The notes below the pieces were generated by a model. The model ran no database searches and had not been told where the DNA came from. It was given only the letters and a program-made list of their open reading frames with translations. From contig JBEKDM010000002.1 in assembly GCA_050014375.1 (NCBI GenBank), positions 1 to 41,705 on the forward strand: a stretch of 41,705 bases of DNA. The letters are read 5' to 3'. The position numbers were made by a program, and so were the translations under genes. This DNA comes from Methanomassiliicoccales archaeon (GTDB taxonomy: Archaea > Thermoplasmatota > Thermoplasmata > Methanomassiliicoccales > UBA472). Positions 3,829-24,406 of the stretch are shown here, piece by piece (within the stretch, counting starts at the first letter, position 1; every line of letters begins with the position of its first letter).

Positions 3829-4512
3829 CTAACGCCATTCCAGTAGCGCAGGACATGTCTCTGTGACCTCGCCCCTGATCTCGAAGGGCACCCATTGGCT
3901 GGAGGTCGGATATCCCCTCATGTGGCGAATCCTCATGCGCCGGTTCAGATCGTCGTCGAATTTGAGTTCGATTACACCATCGGCTATCGCCATTAAGTGA
4001 TTGACGGTCTTTTCGTCATGCACGCTGTCGTGTATCGAGAATATCATGGTACCGTAAGAGCTTCTCACTTTTGAGCTCGATATCTGGAAGAACTTCAGTA
4101 CCACGTTCGACTGATTGTACAAGAAGAGCGTGGAAAGGGTGTATAGGAAGACCCTCACCGGCCGGACGTGCTCGGAGGCGATGGCGTTCACGTTGAACAT
4201 GATCCCTTCCAGGTCTGAAACTGGCCGCACCTCGGACTTGGGGAACGAGGATCTCTCTTCGGTGGAACCAAGCAACGAGGAGTGGTAGTCCACGATAAAC
4301 AGCTTCTTGCCTAGGACCGCCTTGGTATCGATGCCGAACTGGCCCATCATAGTCATGATGTCCGATGGCAGCACATCGACGGTCACGAAGATGATGGATA
4401 CGTCTTCCGTCAGGTAGTCCTTGAGAATGCTGATATTGAACTCCAGCAAACCGATTCCTGGAGATCCGACCATCAGGATGGAGCTGTGATCGGGGAGGGA
4501 GGCTTTGATCAT
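3829..4512 (-). CDS. Single-domain KaiC/RecA-superfamily protein with a degenerate P-loop
   Basis: SILMVGSPGIGLLEF occupies the Walker A position, but the Lys-Thr/Ser is replaced by Leu-Leu. The protein has a RecA-like beta-strand/helix pattern and a hydrophobic strand, LFIVDYHS, at the Walker B-like position. A strong SD (GAGGTGA) lies 6 nt upstream of the ATG, and the gene starts 9 nt downstream of the preceding gene. Confidence 0.7.
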   Translation of the reverse strand: MIKASLPDHSSILMVGSPGIGLLEFNISILKDYLTEDVSIIFVTVDVLPSDIMTMMGQFGIDTKAVLGKKLFIVDYHSSLLGSTEERSSFPKSEVRPVSDLEGIMFNVNAIASEHVRPVRVFLYTLSTLFLYNQSNVVLKFFQISSSKVRSSYGTMIFSIHDSVHDEKTVNHLMAIADGVIELKFDDDLNRRMRIRHMRGYPTSSQWVPFEIRGEVTETCPALLEWR

Positions 4513-4521
4513 TTTTTCACC

Positions 4522-5988
4522 TCACACAATCGGGGTGAGCGAGATGTTTCCTCCCCGCTCCCTTGCCTCCACGGCCAATGCATTGCATTCAGTGAACGGT
4601 TCCTCTCCGAACATCACGACCGTGCCTCCGATCCTTTCCACTTTGATGTGCAGGTTCGCCAAATCGGCCAGTCGTTGCGTCGACTTGGTGGAGGGCGACG
4701 TGATTCCGACAAAGATCCCGTTGTTGCGCTTGATTGCCGCCAGGTGGTCGGGAATCTGGTCCATGACCTTGTCCCCGTAGATCGATTCGAGCGAGTCGAA
4801 ACCGATCAGAGAAAGCAGCGGCGAATCGGTGTTCCCGAGCGCGTAGGATATCGATTTCCATTTGTAGTCCGAGGCCGGGGATGATCCTTCCACTGGCATG
4901 ACGTATGGTGCCCCGGCCACCTCCATCTGTGCCGCCAGTTCAGGGATCCTCACGTTCTTCTCGAACTGCTCCTTGGCCAGCATACCGATCATCTGATTCT
5001 TGGCCGCTTCGGCCGACGTCTTACGGGTCGGAAGCCAGAATACACCACGGTTCAATGAGACGAAGTTAGCAACCATGGCCCTTTCCAACATCCCGCTTAT
5101 GGCCGTGGGGATGCCGTGACCAAGTTCAATAAGCGTCATGGAGCCCTTCTCCATGCCACCCCTCACCAAGCGGTCCAGATCAGTAAGTCCGAACGACAGC
5201 TTCCCGGTCGCATCTTCCACCGGTTTCCATTTTTCTGGGTGCTTGACCTCGTTCTCCCACAGGTTGGCAAAGGTCTGGATACGAGAGGTCTTGAGTGTGA
5301 ACAAATACTTGGGCTGGGCGATCTCGCAGCCCCTCAGTTTCAGGATGTCGATCTCCCTGATGCGACGTAGCTGATAGTCAGCTAACCCCAGGATGATGAC
5401 CCCGTCTCCCAGATAGTCGAGCTTCATCTCGTTATTCTCAAGGACAAAAAGAACATTGGAACCATATCCTTCGACCAGGTCCTTTTGGATGGCGGTGATC
5501 AGAGATGCACAGCTCATGCTGTATCTTTCGGCCATGGCGTCGATGGAGTCGATGATGATGAGCGAACGAGCAGGGAACGATCCTTCCACCACATCATAGA
5601 CATGCTCGAGGTCCCCCAGGTCTTTCCCGATCATGACCGTCATCTCCTTCTTCGCGGTGCCAATGCTTTGCACCCCTAGGCCCTTTAGCTTGCTGAGGCC
5701 GCTGCGATGCTTGCCTACAACATCCTCTTTCTTCTGATCGGCAGTACCGCAGGCTGGCATGAGTTTTTCGGTCAGCCAGGGAAACTGGGTAATCAATGAA
5801 TGATCGGATACCCGCATGGAGAAGTAGAAACTGTTTTCGATTTGGGCAAGGTCTTCGATCGCCTGCAGCGCAAAAGTGGTCTTTCCTGTACCGGCATTTC
5901 CGCGGAGAATAAGCGAATGACCTCCCGGATTCATGAAGAATTGATATATCTCAGCTGGAATCCTGCGGTTCTCTTCGGAACTAATCAA
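4522..5988 (-). CDS. Two-domain KaiC/GvpD-like RecA-superfamily ATPase (N-domain intact, C-domain P-loop degenerate)
   Basis: The N-domain has Walker A (LILRGNAGTGKTTFAL) and Walker B (SLIIIDSIDAM). The second RecA-like domain reads SMTLIELGHGIPTAIS in place of a P-loop. The start is TTG, because the conserved N-terminus IPAEIYQFF precedes the first ATG. Confidence 0.75.
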   Translation of the reverse strand: MISSEENRRIPAEIYQFFMNPGGHSLILRGNAGTGKTTFALQAIEDLAQIENSFYFSMRVSDHSLITQFPWLTEKLMPACGTADQKKEDVVGKHRSGLSKLKGLGVQSIGTAKKEMTVMIGKDLGDLEHVYDVVEGSFPARSLIIIDSIDAMAERYSMSCASLITAIQKDLVEGYGSNVLFVLENNEMKLDYLGDGVIILGLADYQLRRIREIDILKLRGCEIAQPKYLFTLKTSRIQTFANLWENEVKHPEKWKPVEDATGKLSFGLTDLDRLVRGGMEKGSMTLIELGHGIPTAISGMLERAMVANFVSLNRGVFWLPTRKTSAEAAKNQMIGMLAKEQFEKNVRIPELAAQMEVAGAPYVMPVEGSSPASDYKWKSISYALGNTDSPLLSLIGFDSLESIYGDKVMDQIPDHLAAIKRNNGIFVGITSPSTKSTQRLADLANLHIKVERIGGTVVMFGEEPFTECNALAVEARERGGNISLTPIV

Positions 5989-9391: not shown

Positions 9392-10378
9392 TCATGCGAG
9401 CCGTTCAGGGCAATTGTCCCGACGGGAACATCCAGCGCACTTGCCGACTCGATTATGGTTACGGTGAACCTCTCCGCTCTTCATCAGTGCCCGCATCTCC
9501 GCGAGCTTGCCAAGCAGGAGGTTCTCGAGCTCATCGTCGAACTCGATCTCGTGTTCGACATCTCCATATTTCAAGATGCCCCGCGAAACACGCTTACCGT
9601 TCTCGTCGCTAAGCAACAGACAGTAGGCCCCGATCTGAAGTATATGCGAAAAAAGCGGCCCCCGCGGTTGCCTACCAGTCTTTAGATCGACCGGGATCAG
9701 TTCGGTGCCTACCATCAAGATGTAGTCCGGGCGTCCGGTCAGCTTGTACTTCTCTGAGATCAGCAGCCTCTGATCGTCCGTGCCGACGTACAGGACCTTA
9801 CCATCCACATTAACCTGGCGGCGCTTCTTCTTCGCTAGGCTCTCCGCCATGAGTGAATAGTAAAGCGCCATGCTGGCCCCCATTAGCCACATCAGGGCAA
9901 TGACCTCGAAAATGATGGCCACTTCCTGGTCGACCTGAAGCAGAGTTACGGCGTTCAGCGCCACCACCATGACCACCACGCCAGCGACCGCGATCAGCCG
10001 TTCCTTGCGGATGCCACCTTCGGCCGTAGCCGAGATGCTGTATACCAGTATCAGCACCGCCCCTACCCAGAATACCGACAGTAACGTCAATAGCCAGCGC
10101 CAGCCATTTATGTTCGCTGACTGCATGAGAACGAATCCGATGATGGCCATCAGGGTGGAGACCGCGGAGAACCAAAGTACCGCCCGCTCCCAGGAACCGG
10201 CCTTTTTCTCGCTGGTCATTATTGTCTTCAGGTCTTCGGATATCCTTTCGTGGTTCTTGGAGCCCTGTTTCAATGCATCTGAGCTGACCTTCGCTGTTCG
10301 TCCCTGCCACCAGCTGAGGGGGCAATAGCCGAAACGCTCAAGCTCGCTCGCTGAAATAAAGTCGGGGTCCACAATCAA
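9392..10378 (-). CDS. Cas4-family PD-(D/E)xK nuclease with 4-Cys Fe-S signature and an inserted four-helix transmembrane segment
   Basis: The Cas4 landmarks are ISASELERFGYCP (N-terminal Cys), GRPDYIL...IPVDLKTG (D...DxK), HILQIGAYCLLL (QxxxY) and C-terminal CAGCSRRDNC (CxxCx5C). About 115 hydrophobic residues (aa 65-178, four predicted helices) sit between the N-terminal Cys and the nuclease core. The start is TTG at 10378 or GTG at 10372. The stop abuts the glmS stop with no spacer (TGATCA). Confidence 0.7.
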   Translation of the reverse strand: MIVDPDFISASELERFGYCPLSWWQGRTAKVSSDALKQGSKNHERISEDLKTIMTSEKKAGSWERAVLWFSAVSTLMAIIGFVLMQSANINGWRWLLTLLSVFWVGAVLILVYSISATAEGGIRKERLIAVAGVVVMVVALNAVTLLQVDQEVAIIFEVIALMWLMGASMALYYSLMAESLAKKKRRQVNVDGKVLYVGTDDQRLLISEKYKLTGRPDYILMVGTELIPVDLKTGRQPRGPLFSHILQIGAYCLLLSDENGKRVSRGILKYGDVEHEIEFDDELENLLLGKLAEMRALMKSGEVHRNHNRVGKCAGCSRRDNCPERLA

Positions 10379-17607: not shown

Positions 17608-19218
17608 GTGGATCTCGGATTGCTCTTGATGGTCTTGTACTGCACCTGCGCCGGTGCAGCGCTGGGCACCTTCACTGGCATCGCGCCGGGCATACACGTG
17701 AACACGCTGGCGCTGATCATGTTGGTCTCCTATCCGGGGATCGCCGGCTTCATGAACCTGACCTGCAACGCGTTCGGGATCGGTATCGGCCATGTGCCAT
17801 TGCTCGTGTGTTGCATCATCATCTCCGCGTCGGTCGTTCATTCCTTTGTGGATTTCATTCCCTCGGTCTTCCTGGGGGCGCCGGACGAGGACACTGTCCT
17901 TTCCGTCCTTCCGGGCCACCGGCTCCTGCTTTCAGGAAAAGGCCTGGAAGCGGTTGCTTGCGCCGCGAATGGAAGCATGGCCGGCGCGTGCGTAGCCATT
18001 GTCCTCACGTTGCCCATGTTCATGATGATGTCCGATCCGATCGATGTCTACGACCGTTTCGAACCGCTGATCCCCGGAATGCTCGTCATCGTCATGGTGA
18101 TGTTGGTGTTGGCGGAGGCCGACGATCGCCGGATCACCATATCGATCGACGCCCGTCGCGGTTCGGTGAGACGGCTGGAACGGATCGACGTTCCGATGCT
18201 GGTCCCGCATGACGGGGAGAAGGTCAAGGCGTGGGGCAGACTGGAAAGGGTCTCCCGCAAACGGTTCGTACTTCATTCCGTCCAGGGCGACTGGACTGTG
18301 CTGGCACATGCGGGTACACCGGCCGGCAGGGCGGAGGTGTGCGGCATTTGGAAGGTGCGGCGGAACCGGTCGTGCAACAAGCTATCAGCCCTCTTTCTCC
18401 TGCTGTCCTCCGGACTCCTGGGTTTCGTGGCATTAAATGGGAAACTGCCTTTGACCGGCGTTTGGGACGGCATCGACGGCAACATGCTCTTTCCCCTCCT
18501 CACTGGACTGTTCGGACTGCCGACCCTGCTATCGTCGGTGTCGTCGGGGCGAGTTCCGGCACAGGAGGCCGCGGTCAGCAGGGATCTCGAGACCCGGGCG
18601 GCCCTGGGGGGAGCGCTGGCCGGCGGATTCGTAGGCTGGGTGCCAGGCGTCACCTCGACCACAGGCACCATGATCGGCGCATTGGTCGACCCGGAACGGG
18701 ACGATGACGAGGAAGGCACAGCCCGGCGGTTCATCACCATGGTCTCGTCGGTCGGAACGGCGGCGGCAGTGTTCGGCATCGTCGCTCTAGCGGTGACCGG
18801 AAAGGGCAGAACGGGAGCCTTGTTAGTGGTGAAGCAGATGCTCGGTGCCGAGGGCCTCGGGGCGCTGTCGTCGGCGACGTCAACCGAGACCATCTTGCTG
18901 TTGGTGTCGGTGTTCGCCGCGGCTCTGCTCGGCTACGCGATCACCTTACACCTGGGAAGGCTGTTCGCGGCCAAGGTGGGCTGCATCGACCTGGACCGGA
19001 TGACGAAGATCATCGTGGTCTCATTGGTCCTGCTCGTACTGCTGATGAACGGGATACCGGGCTTGCTCCTGCTGCTCGCAGCCACCTTACTGGGATTGGT
19101 CCCGCCGCGCATCGGCACGAACCGGGTGCACCTCACTGGATGCCTCCTGGTGCCAATAACGTTCTTCTTCTTCGGGCTGGAGTTGCCGTTCGTCTCGTTC
19201 CTGGGAGGATTGATTTGA
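17608..19218 (+). CDS. TctA/DUF112-family (COG1784-like) polytopic membrane protein with a central soluble insertion
   Basis: The motif G(T/W)xPG(I/V) is repeated in the two halves (GTFTGIAPGIHVNT and GGFVGWVPGVTSTT). It has HSFVDFIPSVFLGAPDEDTVLSVLPGH and many TM helices. A basic, beta-rich, non-hydrophobic segment occupies aa 171-256. The start is GTG at 17608 or ATG at 17629. Confidence 0.65.
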   Translation: MDLGLLLMVLYCTCAGAALGTFTGIAPGIHVNTLALIMLVSYPGIAGFMNLTCNAFGIGIGHVPLLVCCIIISASVVHSFVDFIPSVFLGAPDEDTVLSVLPGHRLLLSGKGLEAVACAANGSMAGACVAIVLTLPMFMMMSDPIDVYDRFEPLIPGMLVIVMVMLVLAEADDRRITISIDARRGSVRRLERIDVPMLVPHDGEKVKAWGRLERVSRKRFVLHSVQGDWTVLAHAGTPAGRAEVCGIWKVRRNRSCNKLSALFLLLSSGLLGFVALNGKLPLTGVWDGIDGNMLFPLLTGLFGLPTLLSSVSSGRVPAQEAAVSRDLETRAALGGALAGGFVGWVPGVTSTTGTMIGALVDPERDDDEEGTARRFITMVSSVGTAAAVFGIVALAVTGKGRTGALLVVKQMLGAEGLGALSSATSTETILLLVSVFAAALLGYAITLHLGRLFAAKVGCIDLDRMTKIIVVSLVLLVLLMNGIPGLLLLLAATLLGLVPPRIGTNRVHLTGCLLVPITFFFFGLELPFVSFLGGLI

Positions 19219-19637
19219 CCGACCCACTGTACCACGCGGCACTGGCTTTCGCGGTCTCGGGACTCTTGCTACGATCTCTCGGGATGCCGCTCCCCCTGGC
19301 CTTCGTACCGGTCATGGTCACTCTGCTGGTCGACCTGGACCGAACGGTGTCGCCTTCAGAACGCTACCACCGGTTCCTGCACTCACCTTATGTGCTGTTC
19401 CTTCTGCCGATCTCAGCCATCCTCGCCGGCCTCTCCGGCGAACGGGCCATACTGTTCCTCCCCGCCCTCGGCGCCCTGTGCCACATACTCCTGGACGGTC
19501 TGTCCGGCGAGGAGGTCTGCCTTGTGAACGGCCGGCTCGATCTCGTTACCTTCCAGTTCCGCTGTCGTGATCCCCGCAAGGCGCGATGGGTGTGCCGGGC
19601 CGGGCTGGTGTGTTGCCCCCTGCTCCTGTTCCTTTGA
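19215..19637 (+). CDS. DUF457/YdjM-like membrane-bound metal-dependent hydrolase (small)
   Basis: The TTG start overlaps the upstream stop (TTTGA). The DUF457-like landmarks are LLVDLD...YHRFLHSP and CHILLDGLSGEEV. The third codon position is strongly G/C in this frame. The last 225 nt overlap the polymerase ORF on the opposite strand. Confidence 0.5.
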   Translation: MTDPLYHAALAFAVSGLLLRSLGMPLPLAFVPVMVTLLVDLDRTVSPSERYHRFLHSPYVLFLLPISAILAGLSGERAILFLPALGALCHILLDGLSGEEVCLVNGRLDLVTFQFRCRDPRKARWVCRAGLVCCPLLLFL

Positions 19638-21782
19638 GTACATCGTCCGCATGGTCGCGATGTCGTATCCGAACGGAACCAGCAGTTCCGATGCGGCGCG
19701 CAGCGACAGTTCCACGTACTTCTCCGGCTCGTAGACCTCGTCGCCGTCCAGGAACTTCGCCACCTTGACCCGTTCCTCGCCACCCAGCACGACATACTCG
19801 ATCGCCTCCCCGGGCGGCACCGAGAAGCCGTTGCGCTTCATCTGCTGCAGCGCCGCTAACGACTCGTTGTGCTGCGTGTACTCCTCCACCTCCTTGGAGA
19901 TGCGCTTCGTTATCACCAGCTTGTCCAGCGGCACGGAGCCGGACCGTATCGTCTCCACGTACTCGCCGACGATGTCCAGCACTTCCGGTATCGCCTCCCG
20001 GAACTCCTTCGAGTCCCTGCACTTGGCCAACCGGTCCAGCATATCCTGCTGCAGCTCCCGCACGATGGTCGTGGTGTCGTGCTTGCGCAGGGCGATGCCG
20101 CGGATCTTGATCTCGCCGCCCTCGAACACGCCATAGTACCGGTTCAGCGCCCCTACGCCGGTGGTGATGTTCGGCAGGAAGACGATCCAGTTGTATATGC
20201 CATCCAGCACCAGCGGTATCTTCTCGATCTTTTTCACATCCGTGGAGAATGCGTCGGTATCCCCGTCCCCCTGGAGCCATAGCGAGTCGACGATGCCGTG
20301 CAGCACGCGGAAGCCGCGTTGTTCCGCCAGTGCCGACGTTCGCAGCAGTATCTCCCGGCCGTAGGCGTTGATCGCCTCGTGGCACTCGATCCTCCCGAAG
20401 CGGGCATTCCGGTATCCGGTGTAGCCAAAGCAAGTGACCAGGATCCATTTCAGGGCCTTGGCCCGGGAGTCGTATTTCTTGGCATGCCGGGACCCGCTCT
20501 TGGACAGCTTCTTGAGAGCGATCCGGCGCCTGACGATCGGCTCGAGCACCCTCGGTAGCAGCCCCGTCACTTTCTCGCAGATGCGGTAGCCGATCTCCGG
20601 CACGATGCGCCTCGAATCGGGGCAGCACCCGCACTGCAGCGTCTCCGGGGATATGTTGTGCACCACCATGATGCTAGGGTACAACGAAGTGAAGTCGAAC
20701 TCCGCCACCCGGTCGTGTATCCCGACCTTCGGCTCGTAGATGAAACCGCCCCGGTCCGAGACGATCAGCTCACCGGCGGTCTTGAAGTTCTCTGGCAGGT
20801 TCTTCTTCCAAAGCACCAGCGTGCTGCTGCGTACCGCCTCGTTCACCTGCATCGAGCTGATCGCCGTCCCGGGCGAGAGCCGGGACATCTCCTGCAGCGA
20901 TATGCGCGACAGCCTGGTCATGTCGATCAGCCCGTACAGCCCGCCCTCCTCGAACGTGAACGAACTGTCGGCATCGATGTGGATGCGGCCGCGGAGCTTC
21001 TGCGCCGGCGGCTTGTAGACGATGCGGCCGTAGGTGAAGTAGCTCTTGCCCTTGGCGTTCCTTACACCTTTCTCCCGACCCAGGTCGAACTCCATGCCCA
21101 GCATTTCGGCCCGGTGCGAAAGGTAGGGCAGGTAGAAGCTGTCGCCGTTCTGCGTCAGGATGATGTCCGGGTCCTTGCGGCGCACCAGTTCCAGCACGCC
21201 CTGCAATACGTCCTCCTCGCTCCCATCCACTTCATCTCCGGCGAGCGATGCCGAGCGCAGCGGGTCCTCGTACGTTGGTATGTGGTTCCTGGCGTTCACC
21301 TTGATGTCCAGCCGCATCACCTTCAGGTCCGGGATGGGGTAATCGAGCCGGTAAGGTTGGTCCAGGTGGTGGTACCGCTCCCCGGTGTCCAGCAGGCCCA
21401 TCGGGAAGATGCCGTGCGCCAGGTAGTAGCGGTGGTCCATGCGGAAGTCGACGTTGAACAGCTTGTAGTCGCGGTACAGGCCCCAACGGTCGATCATCTT
21501 CGCCGTCGGCATCAGCGACAGGTAGCAGTCCGGGACGATCTTCACCACGTCCCGCTTCTTCTCCCCCAGCCAGGTGCGGTGCTTCTCCACCGTCTGCTCG
21601 CCGATGCCAGCGATGCGCAGCCCGGAGCGTAGCTCGGCCATCTTGTCCTCCGGGGCCCAGACGAAGAACGCCGGACGGAACTTCCAGTCCACGATCTTCC
21701 GGACGCCCTGCCTCGTCCACAGCCACAGCACCATCGAGTCATCCCTGGTGTCGGCGTAACAATCTATGATCCAGCCCCTCAT
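19413..21782 (-). CDS. Family B DNA polymerase of the PolB2-like type (degenerate exonuclease and motif C residues)
   Basis: Pol motif A is intact (DFTSLYPSI). Motif B reads KWILVTCFGYTGY. Motif C reads HGIVDS instead of YxDTD. Exo I reads LDIK instead of FDIE, and Exo II reads NGDSFY instead of NxxxFD. The start is set at the ATG at 21782 (MRGWIIDCY), which overlaps the upstream stop (ATGA). The 44 codons further upstream are Arg/Ala-rich and overlap the small gene. Confidence 0.8.
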   Translation of the reverse strand: MRGWIIDCYADTRDDSMVLWLWTRQGVRKIVDWKFRPAFFVWAPEDKMAELRSGLRIAGIGEQTVEKHRTWLGEKKRDVVKIVPDCYLSLMPTAKMIDRWGLYRDYKLFNVDFRMDHRYYLAHGIFPMGLLDTGERYHHLDQPYRLDYPIPDLKVMRLDIKVNARNHIPTYEDPLRSASLAGDEVDGSEEDVLQGVLELVRRKDPDIILTQNGDSFYLPYLSHRAEMLGMEFDLGREKGVRNAKGKSYFTYGRIVYKPPAQKLRGRIHIDADSSFTFEEGGLYGLIDMTRLSRISLQEMSRLSPGTAISSMQVNEAVRSSTLVLWKKNLPENFKTAGELIVSDRGGFIYEPKVGIHDRVAEFDFTSLYPSIMVVHNISPETLQCGCCPDSRRIVPEIGYRICEKVTGLLPRVLEPIVRRRIALKKLSKSGSRHAKKYDSRAKALKWILVTCFGYTGYRNARFGRIECHEAINAYGREILLRTSALAEQRGFRVLHGIVDSLWLQGDGDTDAFSTDVKKIEKIPLVLDGIYNWIVFLPNITTGVGALNRYYGVFEGGEIKIRGIALRKHDTTTIVRELQQDMLDRLAKCRDSKEFREAIPEVLDIVGEYVETIRSGSVPLDKLVITKRISKEVEEYTQHNESLAALQQMKRNGFSVPPGEAIEYVVLGGEERVKVAKFLDGDEVYEPEKYVELSLRAASELLVPFGYDIATMRTMYSKEQEQGATHQPGPAHPSRLAGITTAELEGNEIEPAVHKADLLAGQTVQEYVAQGAEGGEEQYGPFAGEAGEDG

Positions 21783-22033
21783 CGGACATCGCTCTTGCGC
21801 AGCGCCAGGATCTCTTTCTCCTGCTCCAGCAGTATCGACAGCACCGCGCTCTCGAAAGGATCGGTGAACGCGGCGTAAGTGGCGGCGGAGGCATGCATCC
21901 GCACCCGGTTGCATATCGAGTCGAACGCCACCTTGTCCTCCTGCGGCAACGCCCGGCGATAGTCGGACCAGCTGTTGATCATGCCTTCCGCGTTCATGCG
22001 GTAGGTGGGAACGGTCCTACCCGTCGTCACCAC
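21779..22033 (-). CDS. Small hypothetical helical protein linking the RecA-like gene and the polymerase
   Basis: The ORF is 72-84 aa (GTG at 22033 or ATG at 21997). It fills the whole gap between the two flanking genes. Its stop overlaps the polymerase ATG. The composition is ordinary, not Arg/Gly/Pro-biased. I recognise no family. Confidence 0.55.
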   Translation of the reverse strand: MVTTGRTVPTYRMNAEGMINSWSDYRRALPQEDKVAFDSICNRVRMHASAATYAAFTDPFESAVLSILLEQEKEILALRKSDVR

Positions 22034-22773
22034 CCCCTGAACTCGTCCAACGTGGTCTGGTTACGAGGCACCGGACGGTACAGGGTGCCGACGTTCTCCT
22101 TCGGCAGCATGATGCGCAGCGCCTTCCCGTAGGTCTCGATGCGAACCACCCGGTCCACGCCGTCGTATAGAAGCGGCCGGAGACCCTTGCGGTAGAACAT
22201 CTTGGCCAGGCCAAAGTTCGTGATGACCGTGACCAGGTCGTGCTTCTCCGTTAGCTCCCGCAGCTTGTCCATGGACCGGCGCATCAGCTGGAATGACTCG
22301 GACCACTCCATGTCCTTGTCCTGGAACAGGTCCGGGAAGCATGATATCACCACCATGCCAGTACGGATGCGCTTTACCTCCTTCTCCAGCATGTCCTCGA
22401 TCAGGGTGGACATCTGGTAGGCGGTGAACGCGCGCGATATCGTCACCGAGGAAAGCACTTCGTCGGAAGACAGCCGGAAACGCTTGCACACCGTGGTCAG
22501 CTCGAACGGGTTGGCGGAGTTGCCCCCGTCCACCCAGATAACCTCATCGTGGTTCTCGCTGACGGCGTTGACCGACATCATGTTGACCATGCCGAAAACG
22601 ATCCGGTCGGCGCTGTCAATCAGCGTCATGGTCCTCGGTTTCAGTCCGCCTATCAGCGCGTCGATCGGCGGCACGTAGGTGCGCACCGACCGGTCGGAGC
22701 GGTCGGCATAGGGCGTCTCATGCGAAATGCCGATGCTGGCATATTCTGTCTGTTCCATTGTGCTTAGTTCCAT
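22027..22773 (-). CDS. RecA/RadB-superfamily paralog lacking Walker A and Walker B (predicted non-ATPase)
   Basis: The Rad51/RadB-like landmarks are PIDALIGGL, VIWVDGGNSANPFE, ISRAFTAYQ and LVTVITNF. The P-loop position reads MTLIDSADRIVF, and the Walker B position reads MVVISCFPDLF. Confidence 0.7.
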   Translation of the reverse strand: MELSTMEQTEYASIGISHETPYADRSDRSVRTYVPPIDALIGGLKPRTMTLIDSADRIVFGMVNMMSVNAVSENHDEVIWVDGGNSANPFELTTVCKRFRLSSDEVLSSVTISRAFTAYQMSTLIEDMLEKEVKRIRTGMVVISCFPDLFQDKDMEWSESFQLMRRSMDKLRELTEKHDLVTVITNFGLAKMFYRKGLRPLLYDGVDRVVRIETYGKALRIMLPKENVGTLYRPVPRNQTTLDEFRGW

Positions 22774-22802: not shown

Positions 22803-22813
22803 ATACATATAAA
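22803..22813 (-). promoter_or_regulatory. TATA-like element upstream of the RecA-like/PolB2 operon
   Basis: The minus strand reads TTTATATGTAT, about 30-40 nt upstream of the ATG at 22773. Confidence 0.3.
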
Positions 22814-22929
22814 GGCGTGAAGGGGAGAGGTGCCCGAAAGTGCGGCCAGATGTATACCCATATCGCTCTCTCGATTTCGATAATCGGCTCAGCAGGATAA
22901 TTAGGGGCAACGACATACCATGACCGACA

Positions 22930-23307
22930 ATGAGGCTGACGCTCAAGGTTCTGGACGTGACGCTGGCGATATGTCAGTTGGAACCCGGTTCCGAGGTCGA
23001 GGAGTGGAGCGATGGCACCGGCATTTTCTCCGTGATGCGCACCGATGACGAAGTGACGATCGTGTGCAGCGAGGACCTGGTGCCCGAGGGCGTCATGTGC
23101 AGCAAGGGCTGGAAATGCATAAGATTGGTCGGCCATTTCGAATTCTCAGAGGTTGGCATCCTGTCGCAGCTGGCGCTGCCGCTGGCCGGGGCGAACGTTC
23201 CCATCTTCGTCATGTCCACATTCAATACCGACTACATATTGGTCCGGAAGCAGGACCTGCACCGGGCATCTGAGGCGCTTCGCATGGCCGGGCACGACAT
23301 CCCGTAA
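22930..23307 (+). CDS. ACT-domain (ACT_7/CASTOR-like) small ligand-binding protein
   Basis: The protein is 125 aa. It has the pattern LAICQL...FSVMRTDDEVTIVC...W.CIRL.G...F.EVGILSQLALPLAGANVPIFVMSTFNTDYILV, typical of stand-alone ACT_7 proteins. Confidence 0.65.
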   Translation: MRLTLKVLDVTLAICQLEPGSEVEEWSDGTGIFSVMRTDDEVTIVCSEDLVPEGVMCSKGWKCIRLVGHFEFSEVGILSQLALPLAGANVPIFVMSTFNTDYILVRKQDLHRASEALRMAGHDIP

Positions 23308-23389: not shown

Positions 23390-24406
23390 ATGGAAGGGGA
23401 TGCGCTGGAAGTGAGACTTTGCCCTGGAGGCCAGGGCGTGGAGCTCCAGATGGGCGAGACCAAGTTCTTCTTCGACCCCAGGAGCACCCCCGACGGAGGA
23501 GTGCATTGCATCTCCCATGCGCACTCGGACCATTTGCCGAGCGCCACCAAGAAGCTTGAGGGGCGGTCCATCGTTTGCTCGCCCATTACCGCCACGCTCG
23601 CATCGAAACGGCTCAAGCGACCGCTCATCAAGCCCATCGTAGCATCAACCCATCCGGACGTGGAGATGCTCAACGCTGGCCACATCGCCGGCTCCAATAT
23701 GTTCCTGGTCAAGGGCGGGAGGACCGTCCTGTACACCGGTGACATGAGCACCCGCGATCGGTTCGGCATCGAAGGGGCCAGGCCGATCAAGACCGACGTA
23801 CTGATCATCGAGTCCACCTACGGCGACCCGTCGTACAAGTTCCCGGCCACCGATAAGATCGCCCGGGTCATCAAGGACTGGGTGGAGGACTCCATGTCCA
23901 GCGGTTACTCTACTGCGCTTTTCGCTTATCCGTTGGGCAAGTCACAAGAACTGATCCGGATGCTGAGCGAGTTCGAGCCGTTCATCGAGGGCAGCGTGCT
24001 AGAGTGCACCCGTCACATCGAATCTCATGGCACCGAGTATTGCTATCGACCGTTCGACGCCACGAATGGGCCAGATACCCCATGTGTCATGGTCTGTTCC
24101 ACCAATGCTAAAAACGGTCTCACCAGCAGGATGAGACGGGGGCACCTGCGGACCGCCGCTGTATCAGGATGGGCGATCAGTTCGTCCTTCAAGTACCAGA
24201 TGGGAGTGGACGAGGCGTTCCCCTTCTCCGACCACGCTGACTTCGAGGAACTGATCGAGTTCGTCAAGGGTTGCGACCCGGAGGTCGTCTACACGCACCA
24301 TGGTTCTGCCGATACCCTTGCTGAAGAGATCAAAAGACGCCTCGGTATCGAGGCGAAGTCCCTCCTACCGCCCCCGAAACAGCGGCGACTTGGCGACTTC
24401 GAGTAG
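23390..24406 (+). CDS. Compact metallo-beta-lactamase/beta-CASP nuclease (SNM1 / ligase-associated DNA-damage-response exonuclease-like)
   Basis: The MBL motifs are ISHAHSDH, NAGHIAGS and LYTGD. The beta-CASP motifs are A (IIESTYGD), B (FSDHAD) and C (YTHHG). At 338 aa it is much shorter than aCPSF1/2 and has no KH domains. Confidence 0.75.
   Translation: MEGDALEVRLCPGGQGVELQMGETKFFFDPRSTPDGGVHCISHAHSDHLPSATKKLEGRSIVCSPITATLASKRLKRPLIKPIVASTHPDVEMLNAGHIAGSNMFLVKGGRTVLYTGDMSTRDRFGIEGARPIKTDVLIIESTYGDPSYKFPATDKIARVIKDWVEDSMSSGYSTALFAYPLGKSQELIRMLSEFEPFIEGSVLECTRHIESHGTEYCYRPFDATNGPDTPCVMVCSTNAKNGLTSRMRRGHLRTAAVSGWAISSSFKYQMGVDEAFPFSDHADFEELIEFVKGCDPEVVYTHHGSADTLAEEIKRRLGIEAKSLLPPPKQRRLGDFE

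Follow-up and report, generated by a model that had tools for sequence, protein, structure and literature searches.

An iRadA-PPB2-PolB2 operon of an uncultured Methanomassiliicoccales archaeon, a probable PolB2 mutasome locus with a conserved upstream promoter element

We analyzed a 41,705-nucleotide (nt) stretch of contig JBEKDM010000002.1 from an uncultured Methanomassiliicoccales archaeon, hereafter the window. Three minus-strand open reading frames (ORFs) at 19413-22773 encode, in order, iRadA, an inactivated RadA/Rad51 paralog of 248 amino acids (aa) (22027..22773; assigned from Pfam, profile comparison and an AlphaFold2 (AF2) model), PPB2 (arCOG07300), a small helical PolB2 partner of 81-84 aa (21779..22033; assigned from homologs and an AF2 model), and a PolB2-group family B DNA polymerase of 789 aa (19413..21782; assigned from Pfam, NCBIfam and alignment). 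The iRadA ORF ends with TGG TGA at 22032-22027, the TGA stop occupying 22029-22027. Reading the second gene from the GTG at 22033-22031 gives a 7-nt overlap with iRadA at 22027-22033, and reading it from an alternative ATG at 21997 gives a 29-nt gap. Its TGA stop (21781-21779) and the PolB2 ATG (21782-21780) form an ATGA overlap at 21779-21782. The mechanical PolB2 ORF extends to 21914, but its homologs begin at MRGW. The three genes are translationally coupled, with a single promoter ahead of them. An initial annotation of this DNA had reported the same 7-nt overlap, 29-nt gap and ATGA overlap, all of which were reproduced on the sequence, and every peptide motif that it quoted was found, including VIWVDGGNSANPFE.

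The trio, an operon type of archaea and bacteria, is already described, and the window holds one more ortholog of it, from an uncultured Methanomassiliicoccales lineage. A predicted operon of PolB2, a small alpha-helical arCOG07300 protein and an inactivated RadA was first noted by Makarova and Koonin in 2013 and set out again by Makarova, Krupovic and Koonin in 2014 (PMC4104785), so that the earlier statement that no characterized system of this composition was known is wrong; such a system has been in print since 2013-14. Timinskas et al. (2025) renamed the partners PPB2 and iRadA, modeled a PolB2:iRadA:PPB2x3 heteropentamer for 40 operons, named the assembly a mutasome and likened it to Pol V (PMC11791011). 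One of the 40 modeled complexes comes from a Methanomassiliicoccus sp. operon, NLT37497-99, of type "1a (iRadA-PPB2-PolB2)" (PMC11791011 supplement). The window contains the same three families in this order, the commonest of those published.

The first product, iRadA, contains the peptides IDALIGGL, VIWVDGGNSANPFE, ISRAFTAYQ, VTVITNF, LIDSADRI and VVISCFPD. Pfam assigns it to Rad51 (E 3.7e-8), the NCBIfam models for RadA, RadB, Rad51 and Dmc1 match it weakly, and a profile built from 26 homologs reached E-values down to 7e-10 against solved RadA, Rad51 and DMC1 structures in the PDB. An AF2 model with a predicted local distance difference test score (pLDDT) of 84.5 had RAD51, RadA and DMC1 cores as its top Foldseek matches (E ~4e-14) and a root-mean-square deviation of 2.3 A to 6tuu_A, the top-ranked monomeric RadA-type ATPase domain (a Rad51 surrogate). 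The Rad51/RadB-type fold first proposed from motifs is thus supported by both the Pfam and the Foldseek matches. In an alignment with Pyrococcus furiosus RadA (4a6p), Walker A is lost, the family consensus "lidss.dr" (LIDSADRI in the window) standing opposite GEFGSGKT. In the same alignment the Walker B aspartate is replaced by serine, with a consensus of "vvvscfp" and VVISCFP in the window against LLIVDSLT in RadA. The suspected loss of both the P-loop and Walker B is therefore borne out. The N-terminal helical domain of RadA is absent: residues 1-23 are predicted to be disordered and the core begins at about residue 28, which aligns with about residue 8 of the isolated RadA ATPase domain. 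At the C-terminus, homolog alignment revealed a box resembling a PCNA-interacting peptide (PIP), QTTLDEF, at residues 239-245 (22039..22059, minus strand), in which 26 diverse homologs always have Q239 and almost always T241 and L242. The terminal NQTTLDEF fits the pattern QxxLxxF with the second aromatic missing, and from its sequence is a putative PCNA box. This box is consistent with the published finding that PCNA- or clamp-binding motifs lie mostly at iRadA C-termini (PMC11791011). The arCOGs of iRadA are arCOG07763, arCOG04294 and arCOG08101.

The third product matches Pfam DNA_pol_B (E 1.5e-33) and DNA_pol_B_exo1 (E 4.6e-11), the latter match being confined to residues 188-271. Its best NCBIfam model is NF004416 ("type B DNA-directed DNA polymerase," 665 positions; E 2.6e-149, with a score just below the cutoff), compared with 4e-59 or weaker for the NCBIfam DNA polymerase I models. 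Among solved structures it comes closest to Thermococcales PolB3 (E 1e-58, over residues 272-718 only), whereas Sso Dpo1 gives 1e-32. The polymerase is 56% identical to the Methanomassiliicoccus PolB2 NLT37497 over the first 399 aa, and a PolB2 homology search returned only close Thermoplasmata relatives among the matches listed. In an alignment of the window sequence with 53 relatives (54 sequences), motif A, DFxSLYPSI (DFTSLYPSI in the window), is invariant. The PolC motif, YxDTD in its usual form, is an HxxxD variant, HGIVD, at residues 495-499 (20286..20300, minus strand; HGIVDS with the following residue), in which the first Asp is replaced and H495, I497 and D499 are each kept in 53/54 sequences. 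HxxxD is a signature of the PolB2 group, and Sulfolobus Dpo2, which carries it, is active (PMC8764526). Exo I (LDIK in the window) is variable, with D159 present in just 8 of the 54 sequences and no DxE, and Exo II reads NGDSFY. Residues 333-344, FKTAGELIVSDR (20751..20786, minus strand), form an FxxA-type motif like those of Rad51 oligomerization, combined with the PolB2-specific D(K/R). F333-K-T-A336, L339, D343 and the GG after R344 are invariant in all 54 sequences, and R344 itself is found in 53 (K in the other). In the published models an FKTA-type loop serves as the iRadA-binding beta-alpha motif, and DK touches the PPB2 arm (PMC11791011). The presence of HxxxD, D(K/R) and degenerate exonuclease motifs supports the assignment of this polymerase to the PolB2 type.

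Pfam and NCBIfam scans of the middle gene returned only noise, the Pfam set used being one without PF26485, and each of its 192 database homologs carries PF26485 as its precomputed family. With Halorubrum salinarum PPB2 (PMC11791011 supplement) it shares 39% identity (E 3e-16), and its family profile aligns, weakly (E 1.2e-4), with Sulfolobus islandicus PPB2 from MGRT onward; the small ORF thus has conserved homologs, published PPB2 among them. The AF2 monomer has three helices, at residues 8-28, 31-50 and 59-81. GRTVPTYR is nearly invariant in the alignment, and the window keeps both arginines of the published arm (positions 3 and 9), which the published models place next to DNA (PMC11791011).

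A scan with the iRadA alignment over one genome per species gave 478 relatives, and 80 related loci (L001-L080) were examined, all from metagenome-assembled genomes of Methanomassiliicoccales or other Thermoplasmata and the closest of them 93-96% identical to the window. A PPB2 homolog lies downstream of iRadA on the same strand in 76 of the 80 and a PolB2 homolog in 73, so that the neighborhood is conserved along with this PolB2 subtype; at least three of the four loci without a PPB2 match end ~2.5 kb or less from iRadA. The wider order CMK - Cbf5 - MBL nuclease - iRadA - PPB2 - PolB2 - TctA - ABC transporter is conserved across Methanomassiliicoccales, which argues that the module is chromosomal and vertically inherited rather than a mobile element. 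In ~15 loci iRadA stands apart from PPB2-PolB2, separated by a few hundred bases or by 1-6 kb of unrelated genes. About 13 loci carry insertions between iRadA and PPB2 (L007, L010, L012, L028-L030, L033, L037, L038, L061-L063, and L066), with unrelated cargo that includes a P-type ATPase, PPK2, (zinc) dehydrogenases, a STAND/TPR ATPase, an alpha/beta hydrolase and one HhH-GPD glycosylase. The iRadA/PPB2 junction appears to tolerate insertion if PPB2-PolB2 retains its own copy of the promoter described next.

Upstream of iRadA the window reads cACTTTCGGgcaCCTCTCCCCttcacgccTTTATATG, followed by 32 nt and the ATG. This region holds a TATA-box-like element recognized by reading the sequence, TTTATATG (22806..22813, minus strand), 33-40 nt upstream of the ATG, and beyond it an ANTTTC-type upstream promoter element, cACTTTCGGgCACCTCTCCCC (22823..22842, minus strand), identified by pattern and position weight matrix (PWM) comparison. 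The consensus of the element across loci is yANTTTCR(G/C)nCAyCTCyCCC, and it begins exactly 28 nt before the TATA box. A pattern search found identical spacing in 53 loci, and the PWM added 17 more iRadA promoters. Among the 53, TTTATA occupies alignment positions 28-33 in 46-51 promoters. Positions that the search pattern left free are nonetheless conserved: every promoter has C or T at -1 and a purine at +6, and +12 to +14 read CTC (both C in 53/53, T in 45/53). The bases flanking the element are not conserved. When a 22-nt PWM was run over both strands of 983 kb of loci, 88 hits scored at least 14 bits, against 1 in shuffled sequence, and an iRadA or PPB2 start follows immediately after 85 of these hits. 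In 16 loci in which PPB2-PolB2 is detached or spaced from iRadA, the element occurs a second time, accompanied by a separate TATA box, ahead of the PPB2 ATG. By itself the 8-mer ASTTTCRG occurs in the window about as often as expected (4 matches, 4.3 expected), so the significance is limited to the extended, position-specific element. The element was also noted in L081-L110. In metagenome contigs the exact pattern occurred at 31 sites, of which 14 precede iRadA, 5 precede PPB2, 3 lie at contig ends and 9 precede other genes. One of these nine genes encodes a helicase whose N-terminus matches P. furiosus Hef (1wp9, E 5e-25) and FANCM (E 1.4e-13). Together with the fixed spacing, this distribution is good evidence for a dedicated cis-regulatory site, and that the site would act as a damage-response element is a reasonable inference from sequence. 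In two metagenome loci, L098 (2746-2780) and L100, the element lies in an AT-rich stretch followed by genes for a small basic protein and a huge, repetitive, Lys-rich protein; these loci may represent a virus or plasmid borrowing the host element.

In S. islandicus, Orc1-2 binds an element built around ANTTTC, with the consensus AATAGTTTCRGWDTACTCWS, and the induction of dpo2 requires Orc1-2 (PMC6061795). The window sequence cACTTTCGGgcacCTCTC at 22842-22825 matches this consensus at positions -1, 0, 2-7 and 12-16. The family consensus has y-A-N-TTTC-R-G in common with it and also, without a shift in offset, CTC-W-S, so that the ANTTTC-type hexamer, the R-G and the CTC(W)S are shared at equal spacing. 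Seven iRadA promoters on haloarchaeal plasmids were inspected. In two of them (Halorubrum PV6 and Halobaculum) cCACTTTCAC stands at -57 and a TATA-like box follows ~24 nt further on; another element is common to the remaining five and in two of these recurs before PolB2. Two other arrangements were seen in haloarchaea. PPB2 and PolB2 are kept apart in L111 and L113 by an additional small ORF and by a ~270-nt spacer that has its own promoter-like element, and on plasmids L114, L115 and L119 iRadA-PPB2 is followed by a ~215-aa protein with an RNase H-like domain in place of PolB2. In the literature searched, ANTTTC is discussed only for Sulfolobales, and promoters are not treated in the recent survey of the mutasome operons (PMC11791011).

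A further peculiarity of the locus is the start of PPB2. The conserved N-terminus, (M)GRTVPTYR, begins at an ACG codon (22024-22022), and neither of the two starts named in the initial annotation, GTG 22033 and ATG 21997, is homologous to the family start. Across loci the codon preceding GRTVPTYR is ATG in 49, TTG in 4, GTG in 2, CTG in 1 and ACG in 16. The 16 cases, out of 73 loci, belong to the clade of the window, to L069 and to a separate Thermoplasmata clade (comparison of L001-L005, L026, L064, L067, and L069-L078). In L068 and L069 the 24 bases upstream are identical and the sole difference is ATG versus ACG at the initiator position. In six ACG loci (L064, L067, L070, L071, L073, and L074) no ATG, GTG or TTG occurs between the in-frame stop and the ACG, so translation of the conserved arm there would require a non-canonical start. 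This points to near-cognate ACG initiation of PPB2. The nearest canonical starts in the window, two GTG codons at 22033 and 22030 that precede the ACG by three and two codons, are possible as well and would give MVTT-GRT or MTT-GRT. Gene callers give versions of 83 aa and 72 aa, neither of which begins at the conserved MGRT position. The ATG at 21997 was rejected because the nine codons upstream of it, which it would remove, are among the most conserved in the family. A programmed frameshift fusing iRadA to PPB2, considered as a reason for the missing ATG, was rejected because the PPB2 frame relative to iRadA is -1 in the clade of the window and +1 in the Thermoplasmata clade. The position of the initiator bears on the annotation of PPB2 by gene callers and also on stoichiometry, since the modeled complex needs three PPB2 copies per polymerase.

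The promoter element, the PPB2 ACG initiator and the PolB2 tail overlap described below appear to be undescribed in the literature searched. We propose tentatively, and with somewhat less than even confidence, that the element is the euryarchaeal counterpart of the Orc1-2 element of Sulfolobales and that PPB2 has a near-cognate ACG start both in the clade of the window and in the separate Thermoplasmata clade. If this is true, the PolB2 mutasome, along with a small regulon that includes a Hef/FANCM-type helicase, would have come under Orc1/Cdc6-type transcriptional control before Thermoproteota and Thermoplasmatota split, such control could be recognized in uncultured archaea straight from their promoter sequences, and the PPB2 ACG would be a rare non-canonical start that possibly limits mutasome assembly. 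The element also offers a concrete, mutable cis-site and a search pattern for finding out whether a single Orc1/Cdc6-based circuit is common to the damage responses of archaea.

It is essentially certain that the locus belongs to the iRadA-PPB2-PolB2 family and is an ordinary ortholog of the published module. Beyond family membership, we consider it very probable that this is a chromosomal PolB2 mutasome operon encoding an error-prone damage-tolerance complex. Our working model takes the behavior of the polymerase from Sulfolobus experiments, the architecture of the complex from AlphaFold models and its regulation from the promoter element reported here. Transcription would be turned on after DNA damage through the ANTTTC-type element, probably by a regulator of the Orc1/Cdc6 family. 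One PolB2 would then bind one iRadA through the FKTA loop, much as Rad51 subunits bind each other, and a PPB2 trimer would dock with one GRTVPTYR arm inserted between PolB2 and iRadA, beside the DNA. Through its C-terminal QTTLDEF box, iRadA would hold the whole complex on PCNA where a primer end has stalled. By analogy with Sulfolobus Dpo2, PolB2 would be an active, proofreading-free polymerase that extends mismatched or lesion-opposed primer ends. The arrangement envisaged in the initial annotation, an inactive RecA-like scaffold and a small adaptor serving a proofreading-deficient PolB2, agrees with the published accounts (PMC4104785, PMC11791011).

With the operons described in those accounts the window shares HxxxD, the FxxA-like loop with D(K/R), degenerate exonuclease motifs, the loss of Walker A and B, the absence of the RadA N-terminal domain, the GRT...R arm, and a putative clamp-binding motif on iRadA rather than on PolB2. 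Its own features are ACG in place of ATG at the PPB2 initiator, an acidic PolB2 tail of ~74 residues, the conserved promoter element, and a neighborhood without Orc1/Cdc6, SRAP or DUF72 genes. In Sulfolobus, Dpo2 is damage-inducible, is needed for targeted mutagenesis and acts as an extender of mismatches and lesions (PMC7390963, PMC8764526). Sulfolobus/Saccharolobus Dpo2 belongs to the same HxxxD PolB2 group, likewise has no proofreading site and has the same partner genes. It differs in coming from Thermoproteota rather than Thermoplasmatota, in its gene order (PPB2-PolB2-iRadA), in its size, Dpo2 being among the smallest PolB2 enzymes known compared with 789 aa in the window, and in its PPB2, whose similarity to that of the window is marginal (E 1.2e-4). 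The window offers a clean, compact example of a PolB2 mutasome locus from a methanogen-related lineage.

Several points weigh against this interpretation. The heteropentamer is an AlphaFold model only, in Sulfolobus as well, and the experimental evidence for PolB2 function comes only from Sulfolobus Dpo2 (PMC7390963, PMC8764526). Confidence in the PPB2 monomer model is moderate (pLDDT 69). The PPB2 family is described as homotrimeric, with a fold like that of the sigma-factor N-terminal domain; a Foldseek search with the monomer model against the PDB gave nothing at E below 1. The PIP-like box of iRadA has no second aromatic residue of the canonical QxxLxxFF. Because the initiator of PPB2 reads ACG, either translation is non-canonical or the arm has two to three extra residues (MVTT- or MTT-GRT), which might be ill-suited to the modeled cleft. 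The resemblance of the promoter element to that of Sulfolobus is based on a short consensus, and the Sulfolobus motif sits nearer the ATG (-23 to -55) than the one here (-68 to -61). There is no Orc1/Cdc6 gene in the window, and among the neighboring window ORFs scanned no Orc1/Cdc6, SRAP or DUF72 gene lies near the module, so the hint that the neighborhood gives in other lineages is missing here.

The main rival explanation is that the polymerase is dead and that the trio forms a structural or regulatory complex instead of a translesion polymerase, for example one acting in the control of replication initiation or in the clearing of stalled forks. This older hypothesis of Rogozin and Makarova was put forward together with a linkage to arORC2 genes (PMC4104785), and the replacement of the first PolC Asp and of the exonuclease residues speaks for it. 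However, Dpo2 carries the same HxxxD and is as active in nucleotide incorporation as the replicase Dpo1 (PMC8764526), and in our alignment motif A is invariant in 54/54 sequences and D499 is kept in 53, which would be hard to explain in a dead enzyme. Weakened by this near-complete conservation of catalytic residues and by the Dpo2 biochemistry, the dead-complex explanation seems to us unlikely. We give slightly less weight again to a polymerase that is active but serves chiefly in recombination-dependent or origin-independent synthesis, its RadA-like subunit engaging recombination intermediates. A RadA-derived partner would suit such a role, as would the same promoter element before a Hef/FANCM-type fork-repair helicase in one contig, and origin-independent replication has been suggested as a possibility (PMC4104785). 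Conversely, iRadA has neither ATP binding nor the N-terminal DNA-binding and oligomerization domain, PolB2 in the published modeling binds iRadA but not active RadA (PMC11791011), and in Sulfolobus the genetic data favor a role in mutagenic damage tolerance (PMC7390963).

Archaeal mobile elements commonly encode family B polymerases, haloarchaeal modules are often carried on megaplasmids, and the GC content of the module is slightly above the window mean, all of which would fit a mobile element or provirus (a casposon or plasmid-type PolB element) rather than host repair. The gene order from CMK to the ABC transporter, conserved across Methanomassiliicoccales, argues otherwise, as do the PolB2 signatures and the orthology to a catalogued PolB2, as opposed to a protein-primed or casposon polymerase; the neighboring ORFs scanned included neither an integrase nor Cas1 nor any other protein of mobile elements, terminal repeats not having been searched for. 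We regard this origin as highly improbable. As for three unrelated genes that adjoin by chance, overlapping genes are frequent in compact genomes, and nothing more can be said in favor of it. The synteny counts (PPB2 in 76 and PolB2 in 73 of 80 loci downstream of iRadA) already refute chance adjacency, and separated units that both keep the same promoter element, together with the same trio on haloarchaeal plasmids, leave it a negligible prospect.

The damage-tolerance complex proposed here has parallels of design in bacteria. Escherichia coli Pol V (UmuD'2C-RecA-ATP) also combines an error-prone polymerase, a small oligomeric accessory and a RecA-family subunit, and is damage-inducible (PMC11791011). 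Pol V is unlike the trio in having a Y-family rather than a B-family polymerase, a RecA that is the active cellular recombinase, and unrelated accessories; there is no homology. In the ImuA-ImuB-DnaE2 cassette, which is likewise damage-inducible, a RecA-like, probably inactive ImuA is combined with an accessory and a specialized polymerase. That polymerase is of the C family, however, ImuB is an inactive Y-family polymerase as opposed to a small helical protein, and no component is orthologous, so that the likeness is one of design only. The mutasome analogy of the initial annotation therefore stands in that the assembly has been published under that name, but the comparison drawn in print is with Pol V and not with ImuA/ImuB/DnaE2 (PMC11791011).

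The polymerase core shared with other PolB2 proteins ends near 19640 (~residue 715). The last ~74 codons (19413-19637) encode an acidic, clade-specific tail found in the window and in the relatives 93-96% identical to it; in relatives outside this clade PolB2 ends within a few residues of the equivalent of residue ~715. The tail is encoded antisense to the end of a convergent gene (19215-19637, plus strand), overlapping it over its 3' 225 nt; the convergent gene is conserved and is present in 11 loci. This gene has a GGGAGGA Shine-Dalgarno sequence and a TTG start that overlaps the TctA stop (TTGA overlap), and its product is a small YdjM-like membrane protein (weak Pfam YdjM match, E 0.0033). 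Where the tail is best conserved, it mirrors the motif that is most conserved in the convergent gene, so that the tail would most simply be a read-through extension following the loss of a stop codon.

On the other side of the module, an MBL/beta-CASP gene at 23390-24406 (plus strand) matches TIGR04122 ("ligase-associated DNA damage response exonuclease," E 1.6e-36) over its full length, with a score short of the curated cutoff. In 53/80 loci this gene is found upstream of iRadA, and in many of these it is directly divergent from iRadA, the ~100-nt intergenic region carrying the promoter element. In the clade of the window an ACT-domain gene (22930-23307) is inserted between the two. Elsewhere in the window, 9392-10378 (minus strand) encodes a stand-alone Cas4-like PD-(D/E)XK nuclease (TIGR00372, 70.4 bits against a cutoff of 65); no cas gene was found among the window ORFs scanned, CRISPR repeats not having been searched for. 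Two adjacent minus-strand genes, at 3829-4512 and 4522-5988, encode RecA-superfamily KaiC/GvpD-like ATPases of 227 aa and 488 aa, the longer of which has matches to the GvpD P-loop and basic region.

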